64,000 bases of DNA from an uncultured Clostridia bacterium. Its GTDB lineage: Bacteria > Bacillota > Clostridia > Christensenellales > Borkfalkiaceae. The stretch lies in contig CANQSR010000011.1 of the NCBI GenBank assembly GCA_947626575.1, positions 944 to 64,943 on the forward strand, read 5' to 3'. Positions 170-59,150 of this stretch are shown one piece after another. The position numbers and the translations under genes were made by a program. Below the pieces are notes generated by a model. The model had not been told where the DNA came from, ran no database searches, and saw only the letters and a list, made by a program, of their open reading frames with translations. The first letter of the stretch is position 1; each line of letters starts with the position of its first letter.

Positions 170-835
170 GCAGGACAAAGGCTTCCCCCCACGGGGGGAA
201 GCTGTCACCATGTGACTGATGAGGGGTTTTGGACGTTCACGTCATTTCGAACCCCACAGGGGTGAGAAATCTCAAAGGACGCGATTCCTCACTTCGTTCG
301 GAATGACGTATGGAAGCCCCGCTCGTTCGGACAGGACGCTGCCTATGCGCCCCACCCCCTTGGGGAGTCCCCCTCCCATGGGAGGGGGTAGAAGCGGCCC
401 GTCGCTTTGGCATGGCGGGTCGTCGCCCCGCTCGTTCGGACAGGACGGGTACACCACCCCCTCCCCTACCCTGTCTCACGCGGGTAGAACCCCGCGTTAC
501 TTCGCCTTCGGCTCGTGGCGACCTTCGATAATAAATAGAAGCCTCGGTCGGACGGTCACCGTTCGCGCGGCAAATGCGCTCACTCACCGCAAAACGCCGC
601 CCACAGCACACTGTGCTGATGTGCGAGAATTGCGTTTTGCGACCCTCAGGTATAAGGGGGGAGGCGACGGGAAGCCCGAATAAGCGACCCGATTACCTCA
701 ACTGCGGAGAGGCGAGCAGAACGAGGAGCGCGCGGCTTCCCGCACGGAGCGTACTTTATCGTACGTGACGAAGGGAAACGTAAGCGCGACAAAGTTATGC
801 GACGTCTATACGCAGTTCGCATTACGAAGTCCAAC
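170..835. repeat. Mosaic repeat block
   Basis: It contains a C6/G6 hairpin (181-202), M1 (241-308), M2 (minus orientation, 474-644) carrying the 54-bp M8 at 499-552, and M15 (minus orientation, about 690-835). Confidence 0.85.
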
Positions 836-840
836 CAAAC

Positions 841-871
841 AAGGTGCGGAGTCGAATCGACTCCGCACCTT
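841..871 (-). terminator. Hairpin terminator after the lipoprotein gene
   Basis: AAGGTGCGGAGTCG-AAT-CGACTCCGCACCTT, a perfect 14-bp stem. Confidence 0.6.
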
Positions 872-889
872 GCTCAAAGGGGGGGAAAG

Positions 890-2686
890 TTACGTCAAAT
901 CCACGCTGTGCCTGACGTAGCCTGTGGAATTGGCCATGAGATTATATTCGACGATGAACTGCACCGTCTCGTGCGCGGGGATCTTCACCGTGTAATGGAA
1001 AGCCCTGTCAAAGGCGTCTCCAAAGCCCTCGTTGCCCCGCTGGCATGCGAAATATTCCGTTCCTGCGACGACCGAGCCGTCGATGTTTCTGACAAACGTC
1101 ACCAGCCCGCCCGTCAGATTGATGTGGACCGTCACCGTGCGCTCGCTTTCGCCGCGGTTGGTGAACGTAAATACGTCCTGGTAGTCCTTCATCCAATTGC
1201 CGATGTTGGCAAGTTTGCCGCGGGTATCATACCACCCGCAACCAACCGTGACGGGCTTTTGATCGGGCCCAAAGACGGTGTGGAAGGAGGTCATGTCCGT
1301 GCCGACGGCTTCGGGGTGACCCTGCACGTTGATGTGCGTCACCCACTCTTCGAGCGTCTGTTCGTGCCGCGTCGAGGGGATCTCCGCACCCGGTTCACCC
1401 TCGGCGGGAACGTCGTCCATATAATAGTTGCTGAATGTGACGGGGAGCTTGCCTTCGGGCGTCGCATCGTTGAACACCCAGCTTGCGCTGTTATCCACCA
1501 CATACCCGACGTCCTGCCCGCAATGCACCACGCCGTACGCTTCGGGATCGGTGATGCCGAGGTGGTCGTCGCCGCCCTCCGTTCCGGGCGCGATCTTGGC
1601 GGGGTCGTCATACACATAGTAGGCGCCCTCGGCCTTTCCCACGACGTCGAAGAGTACCGCGCCGTTCTGGCAGTTGCCCGTCACGCGTTTATCCGCCGTA
1701 TCGCCCACGTTGGCGTTGGAAAAGGCGTCCGAAGTCGTGCCGCCGAACACATAGATGAATTTCCCTGCGGGGACACGGTAGGTTATCGGCTGGAAGCCCA
1801 AGAGCGGATAGTTGCCGCTGAACCCCATGAGCGCCTTCCAGCTCGCAAGCTGGCTCTCCGTAAACCCGCCCGGGTCGGGGATCCTGAATTTCAGGTTGTA
1901 AAACTGCGTCCACTCCTGTTCGCCGAAATAGGAGCCGTCTCCCGCACGCTGGTAGCCGATGTTCTTGACGGTGACGTACATGTCCGCGGTCCCCGTATTG
2001 CGTACGCGGTAGCCGTAGAACACGCCGGGGTTCATCTTATCGCTCTGCTGCTCCATCGTGAAAAACACGCTTTGGTCGGAGACATCCTGCCGTGTGATGC
2101 AGTGGTTGACGACCTGCGGGCCTTCGGTGAGCGCTTCGGGTGCGTTGCAATACACATAGAGCGTATCCGGACGCTTGACGTATTCGATGGGGGCGGGCCG
2201 CATGGGATCGGCGGGGTCGGAGGACTCCGTGGGGATCTTGCTCGCATCCGGCACCGCGCCGATCTCGAACGGCAGTTGCGCCGTATGGTTTTTGGCCGTC
2301 ACGGTGAGGCGGATCTTTTTCGAGGCGGGAACGATGCGCACATACACCGTATCGCCCGCTTCAAGCAAAATTTCAAAGCCCTTCTCCGAGGAGACGAGGA
2401 GCGTTCCGTCTTCGCCGTAAAACTCCACCTTCCGGATGCTGCTTGCCAAAAAACTTACGCTGTACGTATCCGTGAAGGGAGCCTTCATCTTGACCGTACA
2501 CGCCGCGCCTTCCTCGATGGTCTGAAAGGAGGAAAGCCGCACAACGGGAAGGTCTGCATGATCCTTTACGTCAAACCCGCCGTTTCCGCCGCCACCGCCG
2601 CCGCCCGTACAGGCGGAAGCCGCAAGGAGCGTAAACACCGCGGCGCATAAGAGCGCACCCTTCCTTCGCATATCGCGTCTCCTCAT
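890..2686 (-). CDS. Secreted lipoprotein of unknown function
   Basis: ORF 890..2782. I prefer the internal ATG at 2686 (MRRRDMRRKGALLCAAVFTLLAASAC). It has a signal peptide with a lipobox Cys followed by a Gly-rich linker, and a hairpin terminator downstream at 841-871. Confidence 0.7.
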   Translation of the reverse strand: MRRRDMRRKGALLCAAVFTLLAASACTGGGGGGGNGGFDVKDHADLPVVRLSSFQTIEEGAACTVKMKAPFTDTYSVSFLASSIRKVEFYGEDGTLLVSSEKGFEILLEAGDTVYVRIVPASKKIRLTVTAKNHTAQLPFEIGAVPDASKIPTESSDPADPMRPAPIEYVKRPDTLYVYCNAPEALTEGPQVVNHCITRQDVSDQSVFFTMEQQSDKMNPGVFYGYRVRNTGTADMYVTVKNIGYQRAGDGSYFGEQEWTQFYNLKFRIPDPGGFTESQLASWKALMGFSGNYPLLGFQPITYRVPAGKFIYVFGGTTSDAFSNANVGDTADKRVTGNCQNGAVLFDVVGKAEGAYYVYDDPAKIAPGTEGGDDHLGITDPEAYGVVHCGQDVGYVVDNSASWVFNDATPEGKLPVTFSNYYMDDVPAEGEPGAEIPSTRHEQTLEEWVTHINVQGHPEAVGTDMTSFHTVFGPDQKPVTVGCGWYDTRGKLANIGNWMKDYQDVFTFTNRGESERTVTVHINLTGGLVTFVRNIDGSVVAGTEYFACQRGNEGFGDAFDRAFHYTVKIPAHETVQFIVEYNLMANSTGYVRHSVDLT

Positions 2687-11184: not shown

Positions 11185-11570
11185 GGCGCATGGCCTACCC
11201 CCCTATGGGGGGGAAGGCTTGCTCTTGGCGCCCCTGAGAGGTCGCAAAACGCATTTCTCGCACATCAGCACGGTGTGCTGTGTGCGGCGTTTTGCGGTGA
11301 GTGAGCGCATTTGTAGCGCGAACGGTGACCGAACGCGGGGGTCTACCCGCGTGAGACGCTGGCGAGCGAAGCGAGACTGAGGGGTTTCGCATGTTCACGT
11401 CATTTCGAACCCCACGGGGGTGAGAAATCTCTAAGTTGAGATTCCTCACATACGTTCGGAATGACGTATGGAAGCCTTGGTCGTCGGAATGACGCGGGAA
11501 ACCCTTTCGGCCGCTTGCTTCGCTCGCGTCCACTTTCCCTAAAAGGGACAGCGAGAGGCTTTCCGCGCAA
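11185..11570. repeat. Mosaic repeat block
   Basis: It contains intact M2(+) at 11240-11356, M1 at 11399-11465, and an M9-like unit at about 11500-11560. Confidence 0.85.
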
Positions 11571-14289: not shown

Positions 14290-14771
14290 TTTTTTTCTAA
14301 TGGGAAGGGGGCAAGGCTTCCCCCCTTCGGGGCGGGTTACGACCTATCATGGACAGCAAGAGCGCGAAGGCCCCTCATCGCCGCCACTTCGTCATTTCGA
14401 ACCCCGCAGGGGTGAGAAATCTCAAAGGGCGAGATTCCTCGCTCCGCTACTTCGCCTACGGCTCGTGACGCGCTTAGATTACAATAGAAATCTCGCGCGG
14501 ACGGAATGACGCAAGGGGAAGGCTTTACGCAAACCCATTCTAAATTTCATGCGAATAACCAAAATCACAATTTTGGTTTTCGCCCTCAATTTGCGCGTCA
14601 AGCGCTTCTTGTCCGTTGGAACGTATGAGAGGATAACGCATGTTAAGGCGCGGAAGTATATTTCCCTCACGGGAATTTGTTTGGGGTAAGTTGATGCACA
14701 CCCCCCACCCTACCCTCCCCCCTCTGGTAAAATGGGGGAGGCGAGAGGAACACCCAAACAAATTTCGTGAA
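14290..14771. repeat. Mosaic repeat block splitting yidD from yidC
   Basis: It contains M1 carrying an M8 variant (14391-14510, insert at 14449-14501), M3 at 14551-14623, and the TIR-bounded M4 at 14668-14769. Confidence 0.85.
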
Positions 14772-16693: not shown

Positions 16694-16742
16694 CTTGTTC
16701 TCCTTCGCCGCCTTCTTTGGGAGGTGGACTTATAGAATAAAT

Positions 16743-16771
16743 ATTATAATAATAGTAGTAGGGATGTGGAA
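16743..16771 (-). promoter_or_regulatory. Candidate dnaN promoter overlapping DnaA boxes
   Basis: On the minus strand: TTCCAC (inside a DnaA box), N17, TATAAT. The -35 is weak. Confidence 0.4.
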
Positions 16772-17036
16772 AGCGTGGATAACTTTCCGCCATTTTGCGT
16801 TTCTGACGGTATTATACCGAAAATCGCGGAAAAGGTCAAGAAATTTGCCCCGTTTCCGAAAAAATGCGGGGAAATTTCCCTGTGGAAAGGCGTGTGGAAA
16901 AGTTTACGGCGCGGCATGGAAAAGCGGATAACTTTCCCGCGCCGCCCAAGCGTTTCTTCCCGCGGCGGGAAAGCGGAAGAAGAACGGGGAAGGTTGTCCA
17001 CGGAGATATCCACAATGTGCAAACATGTGGAAACAG

Positions 17037-17065
17037 TTGCAATCTTTATCCACATGTGATACAAT
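17037..17065 (+). promoter_or_regulatory. Candidate rsmG promoter (leaderless geometry) with a perfect DnaA box in the spacer
   Basis: TTGCAA-N17-TACAAT. The -10 ends 7 nt before ATG 17072, and there is no SD. Confidence 0.5.
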
Positions 17066-17071
17066 AAAGAC

Positions 17072-19384: not shown

Positions 19385-19900
19385 CGGATACGGATATCCA
19401 AACGCCGGGAAGCCTCCCCCTTGTGAGGGGAAGACCTGCCCCCTTTTAAGGGGTCGCAAAACGCGCTTCTCGCACATCAGCACAGTGTGCTGTGGGCGGC
19501 GTTTTGCGGGGAGTGAGCGCATTTGCCGCGCGAACGGTGACCGAACGCGGGGTTCTACCCGCGTGAGAGGGTGGCGCGGCTTTGCCGCGTCAGGTGGGGG
19601 TGATGAAAGGCGAGAGAATGTCCCCCCCACCACCGCCCTGCGGGCGGAGCCTCCCCCCATGGGGGGTAGGCCTTTTACTATTCGTCATTCCGCACGAGGC
19701 TTCTATTCGTCATTCCGAGCGGAGCGACGAAGTAGCGCAGTCGAGGAATCACCTTATTATAATCATGTGACCCTTCGACGGGCTCAGGGTGACGGATTTA
19801 CCCCCCCCACTCCCTCAATCCCTCTCCCCAAGGAGCGGGTAGCTCTTACTTACGTCCTTCCGCGGGAAAACCGACAAAAGCTGCTTTTTTCCGACCCCAT
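19385..19900. repeat. Mosaic repeat block
   Basis: It contains M2(+) at 19452-19568, M10 at about 19615-19670, and M5(-) at about 19745-19850. Confidence 0.85.
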
Positions 19901-20911: not shown

Positions 20912-21365
20912 CTGCGTATAAGCTACGCGATACGTCGTCGAAGATGCGCTTCCCTCGGTCGTGTACGTTTTAAGTACACTCCCGTCGGGAATGCTCCTTC
21001 TCCTCGTCTCGCTTGCTTCTCCGCAGTTGGGGTAACCATAACGCTTATTCGGGCAATTCACGCCCTGCGGGCGCGCCCCTTCGGGGCGTCCGCGCAAGCC
21101 CTACCCCCAACGGGGGGAGGGTGGCACGAGCGGAGCGAGTGACGGATGGGGGGCTAACTCCGTACCCCACCACCGTCCTGCCCGAACGAGCATTGTTTGG
21201 CACCCCCTCCCCTACCCCTCCCCCTCTGGTAAAAGGGGGAGGGCAAGGAGGCCCGCGCCTCCCCCCTATACATGAGGGGTCGCAAAACGCCGCACGCAGC
21301 ACACCGTGCTGATGTGCGAGAAATGCGTTTTGCGACCTCTTAGGGGCGCCAAGGGGCGGCCGCCA
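20912..21365. repeat. Mosaic repeat block
   Basis: It contains M15(+) at 20912-21055, an M6-like unit at about 21110-21160, an M4 core fragment at about 21195-21245, and the M2 hairpin sub-module alone at 21278-21347. Confidence 0.8.
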
Positions 21366-23251: not shown

Positions 23252-23265
23252 CACCTGTGGTCAAC

Positions 23266-23289
23266 AAAACCGCCTTCGGGCGGTTTTTT
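23266..23289 (+). terminator. Rho-independent terminator of pck
   Basis: AAAACCGCC-TTCG-GGCGGTTTTTT. Confidence 0.8.
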
Positions 23290-23290
23290 C

Positions 23291-24866
23291 ATATGCTTTT
23301 CTGCGGGGCGGGCGAGGCCTTGGCGCCCCTAAGAGGGGAGCTGGCACCGCAGGTGCCTGAGGGGTTTCGCTCTCGTCGCCCCTTTTAGGTCGCAAAACGC
23401 ACTTTTCGCACATCAGCACAGTGTGCTGTGGGCGGCGTTTTGCGGTGAGTGAGCGCATTTACCGCGCGAACGGTGACCGTCCAACCGAGGCTTCTATTTA
23501 TTATCGAAGGTCGCCACGAGCCGCAGGCGAAGTAACGCGGGGGGCTACCCGCGCGAGAAAGATGTCACGAGCTTGCGAGTGACAGAGGGGTTTTGAAACC
23601 CTTTCCCCCTTCGCAGGCTCAGGGTACTTTCCCTAAAAGGGACGGCTAGTTAGCGCGTGCGTTACCCTGATTGTACGTCATTCCGAGGAGCGAAGCGACG
23701 AGAAATCTCGTCTCTCGTCATGTTGAGCGAAGCGAAACATCCCGAAAAACGAAGTCCGCCTACATTGAACGCGGTCGCAATAAGATTCTTCGCGGATGGG
23801 CAGTTCGTTGAAAGTCATCCCTATGCGGCTCAGAATGACGGCTACTTCGTCGCTGCACTCTCGTCGCCCCTCTTGTGGGTCGCGGCAAGGCTACCCTCTC
23901 CTTGGGGAGAGGGACTAAGGGAGTGGGGATAAATCCGTCACCCTGAGCTTGCCGATGGGTCACATTATAATAATAAGGAGATTCCTCGGCAGAGCCTCGG
24001 AATGACGTATGGGAGCGCGGACGGAATGACGGATAGTATGACACCCCTTCCGTCACTCGCGTTGCTCGTGACACCCACCCCTCAAAGGGGTGGGCAAGGG
24101 GGCGCGTGCGTACGTCATTTCGAGGAGCGAAGCGACGAGAAATCTCGTCCCTCGTCATGTTGAGCGAAGCGAAACATCCCGAAAAACGAAGTCCGCCTAC
24201 ATTGAACGCGGTCGTAATAAGATTCTTCGCGGATAGGTAGTTCGTTGAAAGTCATCCTTATGCGGCTCAGAATGACAGCTACACCCCTTCCGTCACTCGC
24301 GTTGCTCGTGACACCCACCCCTCAAAGGGGTGGGCGAGGGGGCGCGTGCGTTGCCCTGATTGTATGTCATTCCGAGGAGCAAAGCGACGAGAAATCTCGT
24401 TCCCCGTCATGTTGAGCGAAGAGAAACATCCCGAAAAACGAAGTCCGCCTACATTGAACGCGGTCGCAATAAGATTCTTCGCGGATAGGCAGTTCGTTGA
24501 AAACCAAGCCAATGCGGCTCAGAATGACGGCTACTTCGTCGCCCCCTTGGGGCCGCGGCGAGGCCTACCCTCTCCTTGGGGAGAGGGATTAAGGGAGTGG
24601 GGATAAATCCGTCACCCTGAGCTTGCCGAAGGGTCACATTATTATAAGGAGATTCCTCGGCAGAGCCTCGGAATGACGTATATTTCCCACCTCAGTCACG
24701 CGTGACAGCTCCTCCCCAGGGGGCGCTATCGGAAACCCTTTATCCTCATTCCGAACGGAGCGAAGCGGAGTGAGTGAATTCGAATTGGTTCCATATGCCT
24801 CTTTGTTCAAGATACACTCCCCGCTCACTGCGTTCGGGGTCGGTATGAGGGAAAACTCCTTCATCC
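23291..24866. repeat. Largest mosaic repeat block (about 1.6 kb)
   Basis: It contains M2(+)::M8 at 23388-23558 (insert 23480-23533), M9 at about 23560-23650, three 169-bp M7 copies (23676-23844, 24113-24281, 24365-24533), M5 twice (about 23880-24010 and 24555-24680), M6 twice (about 24040-24100 and 24283-24345), and M13(-) at about 24745-24860. Confidence 0.9.
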
Positions 24867-24869
24867 GCT

Positions 24870-25082
24870 TTAAGGGTCTATGCCGAAAAGCGTGTTCGGC
24901 GTGACCCCATATAATTTGCAGAGCGCAAGGATCTGCTCATAATTCAGCTGAAAGACGCCGTTTTCAAAACGGCTGTATTGTTGTTGCGTCATGAGCATTT
25001 TTGCGGCGACTTCCTTTTGGGTCAAGCCCATATCTTTACGCGCTTGTTTGAGGTTCGCCCCCACCATTTTTGCAACTTCCAT
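24870..25082 (-). CDS. XRE-family helix-turn-helix transcriptional regulator
   Basis: 70 aa. LKQARKDMGLTQKEVAAKMLMTQQQYSRFENG is a classic Cro/C1 HTH. A hand count gives about 47% GC. Confidence 0.8.
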   Translation of the reverse strand: MEVAKMVGANLKQARKDMGLTQKEVAAKMLMTQQQYSRFENGVFQLNYEQILALCKLYGVTPNTLFGIDP

Positions 25083-25126
25083 GTAAGAATTATTACCATA
25101 AAGTGATGTAAAATCCTTGACTTACG

Positions 25127-25155
25127 CCGCTTTATGATGTAAAATAGAGGACGCT
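25127..25155 (+). promoter_or_regulatory. SigA-type promoter of the lipoprotein gene in the XRE divergent region
   Basis: TTGACT-N17-(TGt)TAAAAT. The 11-mer TGATGTAAAAT occurs twice (about 25104 and 25145) and is a possible XRE operator. Confidence 0.65.
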
Positions 25156-25182
25156 AAAACCATTTTATTAAGGAGAAATGAT

Positions 25183-25881
25183 ATGAAAAAGGCAATGCTT
25201 TTCATGGCGGCCGCCGTGATCGCATCCGCGCTGTGTTTTGGCGCGGCGGGCTGTGCGGAGCAAGGGATCGACCCCGAAACATTTTCAAGCGAAACCGTGA
25301 CCGCCGAGCAGTGGACCGCCGCCTTCGAAGATGATAATTTCGTAAGTTACAGATTGCATTCGTTCAGGTATCTCGCGGGCGATGACGGCGTCAATGAATC
25401 CGGAATATGTACGAAGGAAGAAAATCGGATACAAATGGAATGGACTTTGGGGGACACTTCCGCCGGAGCGGATGCTTCCACCGAAGCGACGATGCGGTAT
25501 TGCGAGAAGACAGAGGACGGTACGATCTTGTGTTACGAAAGCGCGGACGGATCAAAATGGCAGGAAACCCCCGACTATGGGGCCTACAAGACATTCGCAA
25601 ACCCCGCAAACGGTTTTTTGGAAATCATTGAGCAGTTGATGGAAGTCAATCTGCGTGAATATGAAACCTTTACATACAGTGAAGCGCAAAAAGGGTATGT
25701 TTTTACGCAAGAGACGTCTGCCATGAAGGATACCGTAACGCTAAAATTCCAGAGCGGTAAGATCGTCGCGATCTTGTGGGAAAGAATGGAAGGCGAAACA
25801 AAGACGGGAAACTATATTTGCGCAATTACATATGGCAAGCAGAACGTCGTCCGCCCCAAGGTAGAAGAGCCGTCGGAATAA
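25183..25881 (+). CDS. Lipoprotein of unknown function
   Basis: 232 aa with the signal and lipobox MKKAMLFMAAAVIASALCFGAAGC. It has a strong TTGACT-N17-TAAAAT promoter, is divergent from the XRE gene, and is lower in GC than its neighbours. Confidence 0.7.
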   Translation: MKKAMLFMAAAVIASALCFGAAGCAEQGIDPETFSSETVTAEQWTAAFEDDNFVSYRLHSFRYLAGDDGVNESGICTKEENRIQMEWTLGDTSAGADASTEATMRYCEKTEDGTILCYESADGSKWQETPDYGAYKTFANPANGFLEIIEQLMEVNLREYETFTYSEAQKGYVFTQETSAMKDTVTLKFQSGKIVAILWERMEGETKTGNYICAITYGKQNVVRPKVEEPSE

Positions 25882-25964
25882 CGAGGGCATGTTGGCTTAG
25901 CGGCGTCATCCGCGAAAGCCTCAACGCTCAAAGAAAATTGCGAAAAGTGACACCTGTGGTCGAA

Positions 25965-25989
25965 AAAAACCGCCTTCGGGCGGTTTTTT
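25965..25989 (+). terminator. Rho-independent terminator, near-identical copy of the pck terminator
   Basis: AAAAACCGCC-TTCG-GGCGGTTTTTT. Confidence 0.75.
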
Positions 25990-25990
25990 C

Positions 25991-26600
25991 TTGTGGTTTT
26001 CCGCGGGGTGGGGTGAGGCCTACCCCCTCCTTGGGGAGAGGGACTAAGGGAGTGGGGATAAATCCGTCACCCTGAGCTTGCCGAAGGGTCACATTATAAT
26101 AAGGTGATTCCTCACTTCGTTCGGAATGACGCATAGGAGCGCGGACGGAATGACGGCTACATCGTCGCTGCGTTCCTCGTCGCCCCTAAAGAGGGGAGAT
26201 GTCACGAGCTTGCGAGAGACAGAGGGGTTTTGAAACCCTTTCCCCCTTCGCAGGCTCAGGGTACTTTCCCTTTCAGGGACAGCAAGGGGGGCGGGCGGAA
26301 TGACGGATAGTATGACACCCCTTCCGTCACTCGCGTTGCTCGTGCCACCCACCCCTCAAAGGGGTGGGCGAGGGGGCGCGTGCGTTGCCCTGATTGTACG
26401 TCATTTCGAGGAGCGAAGCGACGAGAAATCCCGTTCCACGTCATGTTGAGCGAAGCGAAACATCCCGAAAAACGAAGTCCGCCTACATTGAACGCGGTCG
26501 CAATAAGATTCTTCGCGGATGGGCAGTTCGATGAAAGTCATCCTTATGCGGCTCAGAATGACGGCTGCTCCCTACCACGGTCTCCTCCGCGTCCTCGTCA
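25991..26600. repeat. Mosaic repeat block
   Basis: It contains M5 at about 26010-26130, M9 at about 26195-26285, M6 at about 26313-26375, and M7 at 26399-26566. Confidence 0.85.
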
Positions 26601-26647
26601 CCCCCTCCGCGGCGAAAGAAAATTTCACGAAAAGAATCTTATAAAAA

Positions 26648-26676
26648 TAGACAAACGCGCGCGGGCGTGATATAAT
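26648..26676 (+). promoter_or_regulatory. SigA-type promoter of hppA
   Basis: TAGACA-N17-TATAAT. Confidence 0.55.
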
Positions 26677-26708
26677 AATGGCAATGTTTCCTAATCAAGG
26701 AGGGGAAT

Positions 26709-36249: not shown

Positions 36250-36480
36250 GTCCGGGGTTTAACAGGATGACGCCTCACGTCATTTTGCCCTCCCTCACGT
36301 CATTTTGCACCCCGCCCGTCATTTCGAACCCCAAAGGGGTGAGAAATCTCCAAGGATGAGATTCCTCACTTCGTTCGGAATGACGTGTTACACATTCGTT
36401 ACTTCGCCTTACGGCTCGTATCGCGCTGAGTCTACAATAGAAGCCTCGCGCGTTCGGAATGACGTATGAGCGCGTCCCCC
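36250..36480. repeat. Mosaic repeat block upstream of alaS
   Basis: It contains iterated CACGTCATTTTGC units (about 36276-36320), M1 at 36318-36384, and a solo M1 arm carrying M8 (insert at 36401-36454). Confidence 0.8.
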
Positions 36481-38329: not shown

Positions 38330-38745
38330 GAACTCCTCATTCCGAGGCTCCGCAGGGGCCGAGTGAATCTTTAACTCATCGGTTTCATGATACATCTTCG
38401 TTTAAGATACACTCCCCGCTCACTGCGTTCGGGGTCGGTATGAGGGAAACTCTTTCGGCTTAATACGTCATTCCGAACGCAGTGAGGAATCTCGTCCGCC
38501 GTCATACTGCCCCGCCCGCACGTTCTTTGTGACGTCGAAGGGCGGCACGAGGAGCGGAGCGACGAAGTAAGAACGAAGCCCGCTTCCACAATACTTGGTC
38601 GCAATAAGATTCTTCGCGGATGGGCAATTCGTTGAAAGCCATGTTGTTGCGGCTCAGAATGACGTTCAAAGCTCGGCCGGACGGAATGACGAATAGAACG
38701 CTTCGGCGCGGACAGAATGACGTACGGCGCGTCGGCATATGAAAG
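38330..38745. repeat. Mosaic repeat block
   Basis: It contains M13(-) at about 38335-38460, an M7 fragment at about 38590-38680, and several GGAATGACG cores. Confidence 0.75.
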
Positions 38746-40462: not shown

Positions 40463-40870
40463 CTATTGTTCCCCCTCATACCGACCCCGAACGCAGTGAG
40501 CGGGGAGTGTATCTTGAACGAAAAAGCATTCATTGAACCAATTCGAATTCACTCACTTCGCTTCGTTCGGAATGAGGCATCGGGGCGACGAGAACAAGCC
40601 TCTTGCCCACCCCTTGAGGGGTGGGTGTCACCGCAGGTGACGGAAGGGGTGTCATATAAAAACACCCCCTACCTGTCACGGCAGAGCCGTGACGTCCGTC
40701 TCACGCGGGTAGAACCCCGCGTTCGGTCACCGTTCGCGCTACAAATGCGCTCACTCACCGCAAAACGCCGCACACAGCACACCGTGCTGATGTGCGAGAA
40801 GCGCGTTTTGCGACCCCTCAGGTATAAGGGGGGAGGCGGGCGTCTCCCCTCATATGGACCCCAAGGGGGG
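40463..40870. repeat. Mosaic repeat block
   Basis: It contains M13(+) at about 40470-40575, M6 at about 40600-40655, and intact M2(-) at 40699-40815. Confidence 0.85.
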
Positions 40871-41749: not shown

Positions 41750-42105
41750 CTTCCCCTTGCTGTCCCTTATTGTAACAATGTGACCCTTCGACAGGCTCAG
41801 GGTGACGGATTTATCCCCACTCCTTGAATCCCTCTCCCCAAGGAGAGGGTAGGCCGAACGTCGTTACGTCCGCGCGAGGCGTTCTATTCGTCATTCCGAA
41901 CGAAGTGAGGAATCTCGTTTTTTGAGATTTCTCACCCCTGCGGGGTTCGGAATGACGTATTGGGCGATGGGTACATGCCTCTTGCCCATCACTACAAGGG
42001 GCGACGAGACCTTGCTGTCCCTTATCGTAATAATGTGACCCTTCGACAGGCTCAGGGTGACGGATTTATTCCCCGTCCGCGCAATCCGCCGAGGGTGGGC
42101 AAGGC
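41750..42105. repeat. Mosaic repeat block
   Basis: It contains M5(-) at about 41770-41860, M1 at 41890-41956, and an M5 fragment at about 42030-42075. Confidence 0.8.
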
Positions 42106-45000: not shown

Positions 45001-45420
45001 CCATGTCCTTGGCGAAAAGAGGCCTTGGCGCCCCTATTAGGGGAGCCGGCGAGGCCATGGCCTCGACTGAGGGGTTTCGGATGTTTACGTCATTCCGCGC
45101 GAAGCGTTTACGTCATTCCGTCCGAAGCCTCTATGCGCCAATCCGAGCGAGGCCTCTATACGTCATTCCGAACGAAGTGAGGAATCTCTCCTTTGAGATT
45201 TCTCACCCCTATGGGGTTCGAAATGACGTCCGAGGCGCTTACGTCATTCCGACCGAGGCCTCTATGCGTCATTCCGAGCGAAGCACGAGCCGCAGGCGAA
45301 GTGGCGCAGTCGAGGAATCACTTGGTTTTAATAATGTGACCCTTCGACAGGCTCAGGGTGACGAATGTACCCCCGCTCCCCAAATCCGCTACGGCGGCAG
45401 GGACCGCCTTAGGCCCCCCG
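45001..45420. repeat. Mosaic repeat block
   Basis: It contains an M11-like start, several GTCATTCCG cores, M1 at 45162-45227, and an M5 fragment at about 45320-45370. Confidence 0.8.
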
Positions 45421-47496: not shown

Positions 47497-48296
47497 TAAG
47501 TTTCGTAAATTTCTATCATATAGAAGCCCTTTAAGACTAAGGGCATAGAAATTTACGATAGAAACCCGCGTTGGCGCCTTAACGCTCTTGGCTCTCTTCT
47601 TCGTTCCAACGGACAAGAAGCGCTTGACGCGCAAATTGAGGGCGAAAACCAAAATGCGATTTTGGTTATTCGCAATAGATTTAGAATGGGTTTGCGGGAA
47701 GCTTTCCCCAAGGGGAAGACCTGCCCCTACTTGTGGGGGCGCAAAACGCAATTCTCGCACATCAGCACAGTGTGCTGTGGGCGGCGTTTTGCGGTGAGTG
47801 AGCGCATTCGCCGCGCGAACGGTGACCGAACGCGGGGTTCTACCCGCGTGAGAGGGTGGCGCGGCTTTGCCGCGTCAGGTGGGGGAAGCCTCCTCGCTGT
47901 CCCTCTTAGGGAAAGTGGCGCGAAGCGCCGAAAGGGTTTTCCCTCATACCGACCCCGAACGCAGTGAGCGGGGAGTGTATCCTGAGCGGAGAGGTATCAT
48001 GGAACCGAATGAGTTAAAGATTCACTCACTCCACTTCGCTTCGTTCGGAATGAGGCCGAAAGGGTTTCACCCCTTAGTCTCGGCGGTGGCCCACGTCATT
48101 CCAACGACCGTAGGGAGAGTCTCGGCCGGTGGCCTACGTCATTCCGAGGAGCGGAGCGACGAGGAATCTCGCTTTTAGAGATTTCTCACCCCTATGGGGT
48201 TCGAAATGACGTGCGGACAGGTAGGGGGTTGACGAAATGACGTGCGGACAGGCAGGGAGGTTGCCGAAATGACGTGCGGACAGGTAGGGGGTGCCT
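47497..48296. repeat. Mosaic repeat block
   Basis: It contains the M12 hairpin at 47497-47560, M3(-) at about 47590-47670, M2(+) at 47738-47853, M13 at about 47940-48060, M1 at 48138-48210, and three 31-32-bp tandem units at 48203-48296. Confidence 0.85.
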
Positions 48297-52048: not shown

Positions 52049-52129
52049 GACCCTGTCTCGCGCGCGTGCGCGCTATATAGATTGATATACAGTATAACAC
52101 AATGAACTTGCGCGCGGGCGCGCTATGTG

Positions 52130-52860
52130 AGGGAAAGGTTATTCCCCTCGCTGTCCCGGAAAGGGAAAGTGGGCGCGAGCGGCCGAAAGGGTTTTCACGT
52201 CATTTCGAACCGCAGGGGTGAGAAATCTCAAAGAACGAGATTCCTCACTTCGTTACTTCGTCTTCGGCTCGTGGCGACCTTCGATAATAAATAGATGCCT
52301 CGGTCGTTCGGAATGACGTATTAGGCCGAAAGGGTTTCAAAACCCCTCTGTCACTCGTAAACTCGTGACATCTGTCTCACGCGGGTAGAACCCCGCGTTC
52401 GGTCATCGTTCGCGCTACAAATGCGCTCACTCACCGCAAAACGCCGCCCACAGCACACCGTGCTGATGTGCGAGAAGTGCGTTTTGCGACCTCAAAGGGG
52501 CGACGAGACCTGCCCCTTGCTAAGGGGGCGGGTGGCGCGGCTTTGCCGCGTCAGGTGGGGGTAGGGCTTCCCCAATTATTTGCCTTAGGCGGAATTCACT
52601 TCCGCCGACCGCCCGCACATTCTTTGTTGTCTAAGGGCGTCACGAGCGCAAAGCGCGAAGTAGGGCGACCCAATTTGCAGAGCCCCCTGTCTGCTTGTTG
52701 TCTGCGAGAACATCGCATCGGGACCAAGCCCGTAAAAATAAAAACCAAAATCGAATCACGGAAATTTGTTTTAGGGCGGTTGATATGCACCCCCCACCCC
52801 ACCCTCCCCCCTTTGGTCAAAAGGGGGAGGCAAATAGGAGGCAAAACAAATTTCGTGAAA
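52130..52860. repeat. Mosaic repeat block upstream of gyrB
   Basis: It contains M1::M8 (about 52199-52317, insert at 52255-52308), M9(-) at about 52320-52372, intact M2(-) at 52375-52491, M14 at about 52570-52700, and M4 at 52757-52857. Confidence 0.85.
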
Positions 52861-58739: not shown

Positions 58740-59150
58740 AAAAACACAGAAAAAGAGCCGAGGCCCCGCCCCGGCTCTTTGCTTATGTTTTGTGCATTTT
58801 GCCGCCCCTATGGGGGACGGCAAAGCTCTACCCCCTCCTTGGGGAGGGGGATTCAGGGAGTGGGGATTATTCCCCACCACAGTCACGCTCACGCGTGACA
58901 GCTCCTCCCCGGGGAGGCGCTTTGGGAAACCCTTATCGGCCCGATACGTCATTCCGAAACGAAGTGAGGAATCTCGTTCTTTGAGATTTCTCACCCCTAC
59001 GGGGTTCGAAATGACGTGAACCCACATGGCGCTTTGGGAAACCCTTATCGGCCCGATACGTCATTCCGAAACGAAGTGAGGAATCTCGTTCTTTGAGATT
59101 TCTCACCCCTACGGGGTTCGAAATGACGCAAGAGGGACGGTGAGGCGTTT
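58740..59150. repeat. Mosaic repeat block with a perfect 101-bp tandem duplication
   Basis: It contains an M5 fragment at about 58830-58870. The segments 58916-59016 and 59028-59128 are identical and each holds an M1 unit. They are separated by 11 bp. Confidence 0.9.

Follow-up and report, generated by a model that had tools for sequence, protein, structure and literature searches.

Does a very short repeat that sits inside other repeats move by itself, or is it only copied along with its hosts? This question is raised by a 64,000-nt stretch of chromosome from an uncultured Clostridia bacterium (contig CANQSR010000011.1, positions 944 to 64,943; hereafter the window), in which a 54-bp unit, here called M8, lies within copies of two unrelated intergenic repeats, M1 and M2. 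A preliminary interpretation made from the DNA letters (the sequence-only reading) had described M8 as a nested, site-specific insertion without target duplication; this description holds, and it applies in further hosts and species as well. M8 has discrete boundaries, filled and empty sites in four host types, a junction rule, a fixed orientation and covarying stems, and it represents a family that is abundant in the intergenic DNA of a high-GC clade of gut Clostridia. The interpretation that we prefer, and hold with about as much doubt as confidence, is that M8 units are very small insertion elements (35-57 nt), non-autonomous and hairpin-bearing, that form a family and are mobilized by an enzyme of the HUH/Y1 type. 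That M8 moves independently of its hosts is very probable, and the assignment of an enzyme is plausible but unproven.

M8 interrupts M2 at a fixed nucleotide

The exact 54-mer at 499-552 on the plus strand is ACTTCGCCTTCGGCTCGTGGCGACCTTCGATAATAAATAGAAGCCTCGGTCGGA, and zero matches to M8 are expected in shuffles of the window. This copy and the one at 23480-23533 each lie within a 171-bp repeat made up of M2 and M8 (Table 1). Five uninterrupted M2 copies fix the boundary of the insert: in each of them, positions 1-25 and 80-171 of the 171-bp unit abut directly. Filled M2 reads ...CCCCGCGTT^ACTTCG...GGTCGGA^CGGTCACC..., and empty M2 reads ...CCCCGCGTT^CGGTCACC... (here and below, a caret marks a junction). 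At this site (site 1), the boundary cannot be shifted and nothing is duplicated. The precise placement of M8 inside M2 at 474-644 and 23388-23558, as first proposed, is therefore confirmed by the empty copies, although these were all said to be 117 bp and one of the five (47738-47853) measures 116 bp.

A second insertion site within M2 was found in other species (see below). Both sites fall where modules of M2 meet. In other species the third of these segments is exchanged, and in the window it also stands alone at 21225-21337. For these reasons, M2 itself may be the product of a like insertion event.

Filled and empty sites in other hosts and species

Species-representative genomes were scanned with the first 18 nt of M8, a pattern with about 17 specified bases. 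The scan returned 116 loci (loci from this and other searches are numbered with the prefix L), many of them chance or coding matches, and only about 40 Clostridia loci were used; at these loci, like units are present in some 25 related uncultured Clostridia species. Searches of related loci cover about 263 kb of DNA from related metagenome-assembled genomes (MAGs), in which a covariance model found 52 copies of M8.

Both states of M2 recur among these loci. A single 8-kb locus, L075, contains an empty M2 together with an M2 filled at site 1, and the insert is of a different subfamily from that in the window. When the window is compared with this filled copy (L075b), the M2 hosts are 90.6% identical and the inserts only 75% (66% outside the tag). 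Site 2, AATGCGCT^CACTC, is filled in L051 and L077, and empty in L009, L032 and the window. One M2 in L019 (L019:7040-7220) carries inserts at both sites, and a truncated tag-like piece, ACTTTGTCGCTATGCTCCT, lies directly 5' of the second insert. The closest relatives of the window inserts, in L108 (89%) and L116 (91%), are found in other contexts. Thus, M8 subfamilies do not track their hosts.

M1 is a hairpin unrelated to M2. The M1 host of the copy at 52255-52308 reads GAGATTCCTCACTTCGTT^...^CGGAATGAC, and empty counterparts are present elsewhere in the window. The sequence-only reading had placed M8 in the right arms of three M1 copies. All three copies are real. Those at 52255-52308, which is 92.6% identical to the copy at 499-552, and 14449-14501 fill M1 loops. 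With M8, 14449-14501 and 36401-36454 share just 73-78% identity, and they represent another subfamily, which has a CGCGC stem. The 5' flank CTTCGTT attributed to 14449-14501 is in fact CCGCT, and the closest relative of this copy, in L116 (90.9%), is again in another context. The copy at 36401-36454 is not inside a hairpin: it adjoins an intact empty M1 (36358-36384) and lies within a partial second arm. M1-type hairpins of the form GAGATTYCTC-loop-CGRAATGAC occur at 36358-36384 and at 16 other sites in the window, with a highly variable loop of 8-14 nt, and an M1-like hairpin (GAGATTGC...GCAATGAC) was also seen in an unrelated soil MAG (L097).

A further host is itself a transposon. A metagenome scan led to an IS200-like element whose TnpA, an ORF of 153 aa, matches the Pfam family Y1_Tnp (E = 4e-37); this TnpA family is very large and includes a protein of Candidatus Gallimonas. 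Among 25 copies compared, all in independent contexts, 24 are empty and read ...GGGCTTACAGCCCG^AAAATGAAAAACCACCGG... at the site GCCCG^AAAATG. The remaining copy, in L163, has exactly 35 extra nucleotides at this position, CCCCCGCCTATGGCGGCACGAGCCGCAGGTGAAGT, which are the reverse complement of an M8-type unit. Ten P0134 copies, L163 included, encode identical TnpA. In the orientation of M8, the site reads CATTTT^...^CGGGC and belongs to the right-end region of the element. The same site is filled in a more distant insertion sequence (IS) in L130, where a Y1_Tnp gene lies 140 bp from the M8 tag, and in a lineage of elements of about 390 bp (L127-L159, L027 and L096).

These shorter elements are miniature inverted-repeat transposable elements (MITEs), because they keep the last eight codons of tnpA and the right end of the IS. 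The possibility that they represent an RNA gene was rejected for the same reason, and they have no Rfam match. The MITE (e.g., L128:6360-6755) contains the nested M8-type 35-mer and a terminator-like hairpin at its end; it recurs in many metagenome contigs (GC 48-60%) with 88-99% conservation. An IS200-derived MITE is also present in Lapin-002 bin43. M8 was also considered as the end of an IS200/IS605 element and rejected in this role: only one of the 25 IS copies carries the unit, and the true ends, GGTAACTAAAA[CCCGCGGATAGTCCGCGGG] and [CCACCGGCTATGCCGGTGG]ATGTTTATT, are different from M8. Nor does M8 qualify as a miniature derivative of this IS200-like element. In every case, the IS200-like element of about 700 bp (152-aa TnpA; L160-L184; e.g., L160:1360-2075) directly follows the T-run of a rho-independent terminator (TTTTT^GGTAAC...). 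AAAA stands before each of the two end hairpins, in agreement with cuts at TTTT^ on the left and TATT^ on the right under a guide rule in the style of IS608.

In addition to these hosts, M8-type units were found in several unique contexts. The independent target contexts that mobility was expected to leave are therefore at hand, namely both M2 sites, M1-type loops, the IS200-like right end and unique surroundings. Filled and empty M8 alleles of close strains were not found among rabbit-gut metagenome contigs 99.8-100% identical to the window, and in L120 whole modules are swapped.

Architecture and conservation of the M8 family

Members of the family share one order of parts: ACTTCG, a mini stem-loop, CTCGT (often followed by G), a GC-rich stem-loop of the form CCGSSC...GSSCGG, and a tail of 2-3 nt. 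The mini stem-loop is usually CC-TNC-GG with a free N, the alternatives being CGC-NNN-GCG and CGG-CTGTT-CCG; these CC/GG, CGC/GCG and CGG/CCG variants show that the hairpin in the tag covaries. Unit length follows the main loop, which is 3-4 nt in the 35-nt unit and up to about 22 nt in units of 50-57 nt. Pairing of the main stem was evaluated in 30 aligned copies. The stem is paired in 95.5% of cells, compared with 81% in shuffles, and none of 500 shuffles reached the observed value; with slid partners, the paired proportion drops to 29-53%. Double changes were observed at two positions of the stem (CG in 19 and AU in 8 copies; CG in 17 and GC in 11).

The tag is nearly invariant even between species that share only about 70% DNA identity in their housekeeping genes. 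Conservation of the M8 motifs over such distances points to a conserved trans-acting reader. No Rfam family matched M8 at E <= 1 (window 200-900), a scan of viral contigs gave zero matches, and a literature search returned no paper containing the tag sequence. The 18-mer ACTTCGCCTNCGGCTCGT also forms the center of a different hairpin repeat in Lachnospiraceae, ...CTCAA-18mer-TTTCGTTRAG... (L013, L015, L062, L069 and L070), and the loop of a long hairpin in L080 and L047. Its presence in other hairpins suggests that the motif may reach beyond the M8 family.

Junctions, orientation and tails

Of 45 copies, 41 have T immediately upstream of the insert, 27 have G at -3 and 23 have C at -4, which amounts to a preference for CG(C/G/T)T. 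At sites where the 3' boundary can be read from an empty counterpart, the first host base downstream is C (CGGTCACC, CACTC, CG(G/A)AATGAC and CGGGC), with one exception, a T in a variant of M2. A shared junction motif thus exists as anticipated, while the exact target CGTT^CGG that had been put forward is too narrow. The sites lie in DNA expected to be unpaired: the loop enclosed by ATTCC/GGAAT in M1, and the interval between two hairpins in the IS200-like element. The M2 sites are 1-2 nt past the foot of one hairpin and just 5' of another. The general target of M8 is ...T^C(G/A) in an unpaired stretch beside or inside a hairpin, and M8 always has the same orientation in M1-type hairpins.

Filled and empty pairs show no target duplication. 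The earlier statement that none exists is correct at M2 site 1, but it needs qualification for 52255 and 36401, where the last 4-5 nt of the insert (TCGTT and CGTT) equal the 5' flank, so that for these two copies alone a short target duplication cannot be excluded. More generally, tails other than GGGG or GGA copy the last 4-11 nt of the 5' flank: TCGTT in 52255 (window 52246-52308), CGTT in 36401, CGGT in L106:1481-1543, and 11 nt, CTGCGCTTGGT, in L044:5903-5965. Such tails could reflect imprecise processing of the right end or conversion against the flank. The 5' flank (...CGNT) also resembles the 3' end of M8 itself (...CGGN), a likeness that might be expected if one recognition element served at both cut sites.

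How M8 may move

We propose that a structure-specific nuclease/ligase acting in trans mobilizes M8 in the form of folded single-stranded DNA; the likeliest candidate would be an HUH Y1 transposase of the RAYT (repetitive extragenic palindrome-associated tyrosine transposase) or IS200 kind. The enzyme would read the conserved tag and the hairpin, cut on the left after the flanking T, and cut on the right after the G-run that follows the hairpin. One-way entry at an unpaired T^C without duplication would account for the nesting of M8 in M1-type hairpins, at two M2 junctions and in the right-end region of the IS200-like transposon. The Y1 route is suggested by duplication-free insertion 3' of a short motif and by the presence of Y1 elements and their MITEs in the wider clade. 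For M8 specifically, we favor this route tentatively and rate it at somewhat less than an even chance.

Several observations weigh against this interpretation. Neither a Y1 nor any other transposase was found in the 64-kb window or in the approximately 263 kb of related MAG DNA; tblastn searches of the collected loci with TnpA and Escherichia coli RAYT sequences gave a sole match, in L130 (Y1_Tnp), and the RAYT sequence matched nothing. M8 has one substantial hairpin of 6-7 bp and a mini-hairpin of 2-3 bp, not two IS-like ends. No guide-target complementarity is obvious in the 4 nt 5' of the foot of the M8 hairpin, unlike in the IS200-like element. M8 is not homologous to the ends of that element and occurs in it only as a nested insert (L163, L130 and the MITE lineage). 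Folded as single-stranded DNA, the window copy is no more stable than shuffles (z = -0.1), and its lowest-energy fold uses an alternative TCGCC/GGCGA pairing. Relative to the locally dominant coding strand, a noisy proxy in a small sample, 15 copies are in the same and 12 in the opposite orientation. Finally, the two filled M2 copies of the window belong to one M2 subfamily and could be one composite that was copied rather than separate events. The sequence-only reading's attribution of M8 to IS200/IS605-type transposition is plausible: it agrees with the discrete, oriented and duplication-free insertion, whereas the single main hairpin and the lack of a transposase gene in the window and the related DNA count against it.

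Alternatives to Y1 mobilization

M8 might have spread by no dedicated enzyme at all: replication or repair could have copied it between hairpin-rich repeats by template switching or gene conversion, with microhomology of CGYT on the left and CGG on the right. M1 and M2 indeed share CGTT^CGG around the site, and the start of M8, ACTTCG(CC)TTCGG, resembles the M1 loop ACTTCGTTCGG. Copying of this kind could also produce 3' tails that equal the 5' flank over 4-11 nt (52255, 36401 and L044) and chimeric units such as those at 45251-45302 and 19687-19733, and it would suit the fast turnover of intergenic arrays, as in L120, which has other modules in place of 52128-52662. We nevertheless consider it fairly unlikely. 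In more than 45 contexts with nothing but a T in common, the 5' boundary falls on one and the same nucleotide, the orientation is fixed, and the IS200 site (CATTTT^CGGGC) and M2 site 2 (GCGCT^CACTC) have little microhomology to the M1 site. The near invariance of the tag among species with about 70% identity in their housekeeping genes likewise argues for a reader acting in trans.

Another class of enzyme may instead be responsible, such as an attC-like tyrosine recombinase acting on folded strands, an RNA-guided recombinase of the IS110 type, or an HUH enzyme of the IS91/Helitron type. Precise, one-way insertion at a short motif without duplication would fit these as well. Helitron and IS91 termini have a GC-rich hairpin shortly before the 3' end, and M8 has such a hairpin just 5' of its own 3' end; the 15:12 distribution, in its small sample, also shows no clear lagging-strand-like bias. 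In contrast, the termini of M8 match neither the R-boxes of attC (G^TT) nor the targets of IS91 (GTTC/CTTG), no gene of these classes was seen in the window or related loci, and we know of no elements as small as M8 in the tyrosine-recombinase, IS110-type or IS91/Helitron systems. This explanation is improbable.

A functional role for M8, as a structured RNA or as a module that binds protein (e.g., an mRNA-stabilizing or terminator-like hairpin), with a distribution that reflects selection, is quite improbable. Covarying stems, a tag strongly conserved across species and the intergenic location of every copy are what such a module would show. M8 occurs, however, in both orientations relative to neighboring genes and inside other repeats and a transposon end; it has no T-run and no Rfam match even at E = 1, and a function would leave the arrival of identical units at unrelated sites unexplained.

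The notion that M8 is immobile and only rides in composites (M2 with M8, M1 with M8) that are copied whole is largely refuted already and has very little left to recommend it: the filled M2 pair of the window is 95% identical over 171 bp and of one subfamily, and the two chimeras (19687 and 45251) have about 60 nt of flanking sequence in common, but the unrelated M1 and M2 harbor near-identical M8 units, both states are seen in four host types (among them the IS, in which 1 of 25 otherwise identical copies is filled), and insert subfamilies are independent of host divergence.

Comparison with known repeat systems

In behavior and architecture, M8 comes closest to repetitive extragenic palindromic (REP) sequences, and it also resembles the small dispersed repeats (SDRs) of cyanobacteria. 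REPs and the bacterial interspersed mosaic elements that they form are associated with RAYTs, which are Y1 HUH transposases (PMC3733652; PMC3116915). Like REPs, M8 is short, extragenic and present in high copy number; it combines a conserved unpaired tag with an imperfect hairpin whose stem covaries, occurs in mosaic clusters and inserts in the loops of other palindromes. Its stem is of the same type as the CCGSSCC(n3-4)GGSSCGG palindromes within which GTAG-23 REPs lie in Thermomicrobium roseum (PMC3733652). Unlike REPs, M8 has a tag, ACTTCG...CTCGTG, of 18-22 nt with its own mini-hairpin; the GTAG and CGTC tags of REPs are absent from both of its strands. Regular inverted pairs (REPINs) were not seen in the window or related loci, where M8 units are mostly singletons inside other repeats, and no RAYT was found there. 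The host of M8, an uncultured Clostridia bacterium, is outside the groups covered by the REP survey, which does not mention Firmicutes (PMC3733652).

The M1 host, rather than M8, recalls another class of REP. Its other strand reads CGTC-ATTCC...GGAAT-C, as in CGTC-tagged REPs and the dRS3 repeats of Neisseria. CGTC-type REPs have a CGTC tag and a stem that starts with AT, with stems of 8-9 bp and loops of 4-5 nt, and no transposase is known for them (PMC3733652). The M1 stem is only 5 bp and its loop 8-14 nt.

M8 shares with IS200/IS605 elements, palindrome-associated transposable elements and MITEs the insertion 3' of a short motif, the fixed orientation and the lack of duplication, though it accepts more varied targets than a fixed 4-5-mer. 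The distance from left junction to hairpin foot is about 18 nt in M8, near the 19 nt of the left end of IS608. M8 differs from known IS200/IS605 derivatives in its size (35-57 nt against at least 100 nt) and from IS200/IS605 elements in having one substantial hairpin, no visible guide-target complementarity and, in the small sample counted, no clear strand bias.

The SDRs of heterocyst-forming cyanobacteria, as treated by Elhai and colleagues in 2008, are reportedly tiny (tens of nucleotides), nested in larger repeats or hairpins, precise in their boundaries and free of target duplication, and to our knowledge no enzyme that mobilizes them is known. M8 is likewise tiny, nested and duplication-free. 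It differs in phylum and is unrelated in sequence, is longer, and has its own covarying hairpin and an invariant tag.

Copies in the window and their setting

The covariance model recognized nine M8 copies or derivatives in the window, all of them intergenic (Table 1). Those at 38509-38568 and 52607-52661 and the chimeras at 45251-45302 and 19687-19733 are additions to the set first recognized. The two chimeras have about 60 nt of flank in common and are part of a larger composite repeat, GGTCACATTATTA...GTGATTCCTCGACTGCGCY, with two copies on the minus strand (19620-19740 and 45190-45310) and CGGAATGACG twice in each; these copies look like recombinant or doubly nested units.

Table 1. M8 copies and derivatives in the window, with filled and empty hosts.
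Feature	Position	Strand	Host, flanks and remarks	Found by
M8, 54 nt	499..552	+	M2 site 1, GCGTT^CGGTCACC; 64.8 bits	covariance model
M8	23480..23533	-	same M2 site; 2 mismatches to 499-552	
M8	52255..52308	+	M1 hairpin loop, 52237-52317; 92.6% identical to 499-552; tail TCGTT, not TCGGA	
M8-like, CGCGC-stem subfamily	14449..14501	+	M1 hairpin loop, 14431-14510; flanks CCGCT^...^CGGAATGAC	
M8-like, 1-nt indel in tag	36401..36454	+	flanks ATTCGTT^...^CGGAATGACG	
M8-like, long tag variant ACTTCGTCGCTCCGCTCCTCGT	38509..38568	-	flanks ...TTCTT^ and ^CAGTATGAC	covariance model
M8-like, tag ACTTCG-CGC-TTT-GCG-CTCGT	52607..52661	-	flanks ...GCCCT^ and ^CGGCGG	covariance model
Chimeric M8 derivative	45251..45302	-	tag, then M1 arm CGGAATGACG, then 3' half of M8	covariance model
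Second chimeric M8 derivative	19687..19733	-	composite repeat shared with 45251..45302	covariance model
Filled M2, 171 bp	474..644	+	117-bp M2 plus M8	BLAST
Second filled M2, 171 bp	23388..23558	-	95% identical to 474-644	BLAST
Empty M2, 117 bp	19452..19568	-		BLAST with 171-bp unit
Empty M2	11240-11356	-		BLAST with 171-bp unit
Empty M2	40699-40815	+		BLAST with 171-bp unit
Empty M2, 116 bp	47738-47853	-		BLAST with 171-bp unit
Empty M2	52375-52491	+		BLAST with 171-bp unit
Empty M1 hairpin	36358..36384	+	GAGATTCCTCACTTCGTT^CGGAATGAC	
Empty M1 hairpin	45162-45188	-		
Empty M1 hairpin	41890-41916	-		
Empty M1 hairpin	38467-38493	-		
Empty M1 hairpin	58948-58975	-		
Empty M1 hairpin	59060-59087	-		

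The window (GC about 58%) is housekeeping, origin-proximal chromosome. It encodes ParB, ParA, FtsH, GidB, Jag, YidC, YidD, DnaN, PEPCK, H+-PPase, CysS, an AlaS-like protein, Dus, GyrB, GyrA, GrpE and DnaK, and it contains no tRNA genes and no Rfam families at gathering score. The closest named relatives are MAGs designated 'uncultured Clostridia bacterium isolate Lapin-...' and Candidatus Gallimonas. Gene strand flips from minus (ParB...DnaN) to plus (GidB...DnaK) at about 16700-17070, which suggests a replication origin there; dnaN itself is present, though no dnaA was found beside it among the open reading frames (ORFs) scanned in the window.

Short dispersed repeats make up about 17% of the window and are intergenic throughout. 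A stretch of 3.4 kb (23252-26708) has nearly no coding capacity and is densely filled with repeated modules, several of which occur 8-10 times in the window; its only genes are a small helix-turn-helix gene and a 232-aa ORF without a Pfam match. In L120, whose gyrB DNA is 99.2% identical, about 210 bp of other repeat modules (L120:77-286) replace the 535-bp block of M1, M8 and M2 that lies upstream of gyrB in the window (52128-52662). The swap suggests that the intergenic repeat mosaic turns over very fast. The spacer between YidC and YidD is 540 bp in the window and only 58 bp in L080.

Significance

The movement and nesting of very short bacterial repeats, such as REPs and SDRs, are still poorly understood. 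M8 offers unusually clean material, with a 5' end invariant to the nucleotide, a T^C rule and filled and empty sites in four hosts, and the IS, otherwise near-identical in its one filled and 24 empty copies, adds to its value. Because the junctions are so clean, M8 is an unusually good subject for tests of cleavage and joining that combine oligonucleotides with candidate Y1 enzymes. A fast-changing mosaic of nested hairpin modules takes up about 17% of this housekeeping region, which matters for MAG assembly and strain typing.

There is also a small but real chance that M8 represents a previously undescribed class of minimal mobile DNA, consisting of a tag and a hairpin and conserved throughout a clade of gut Clostridia, in which one folded strand supplies both cleavage sites. 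M8 may then be a one-hairpin substrate of an HUH enzyme, or it may be processed by an enzyme that has so far not been connected with transposition. If this were true, elements of a few tens of nucleotides such as M8 would be active in reshaping REP-like hairpins and even IS200 transposon ends.

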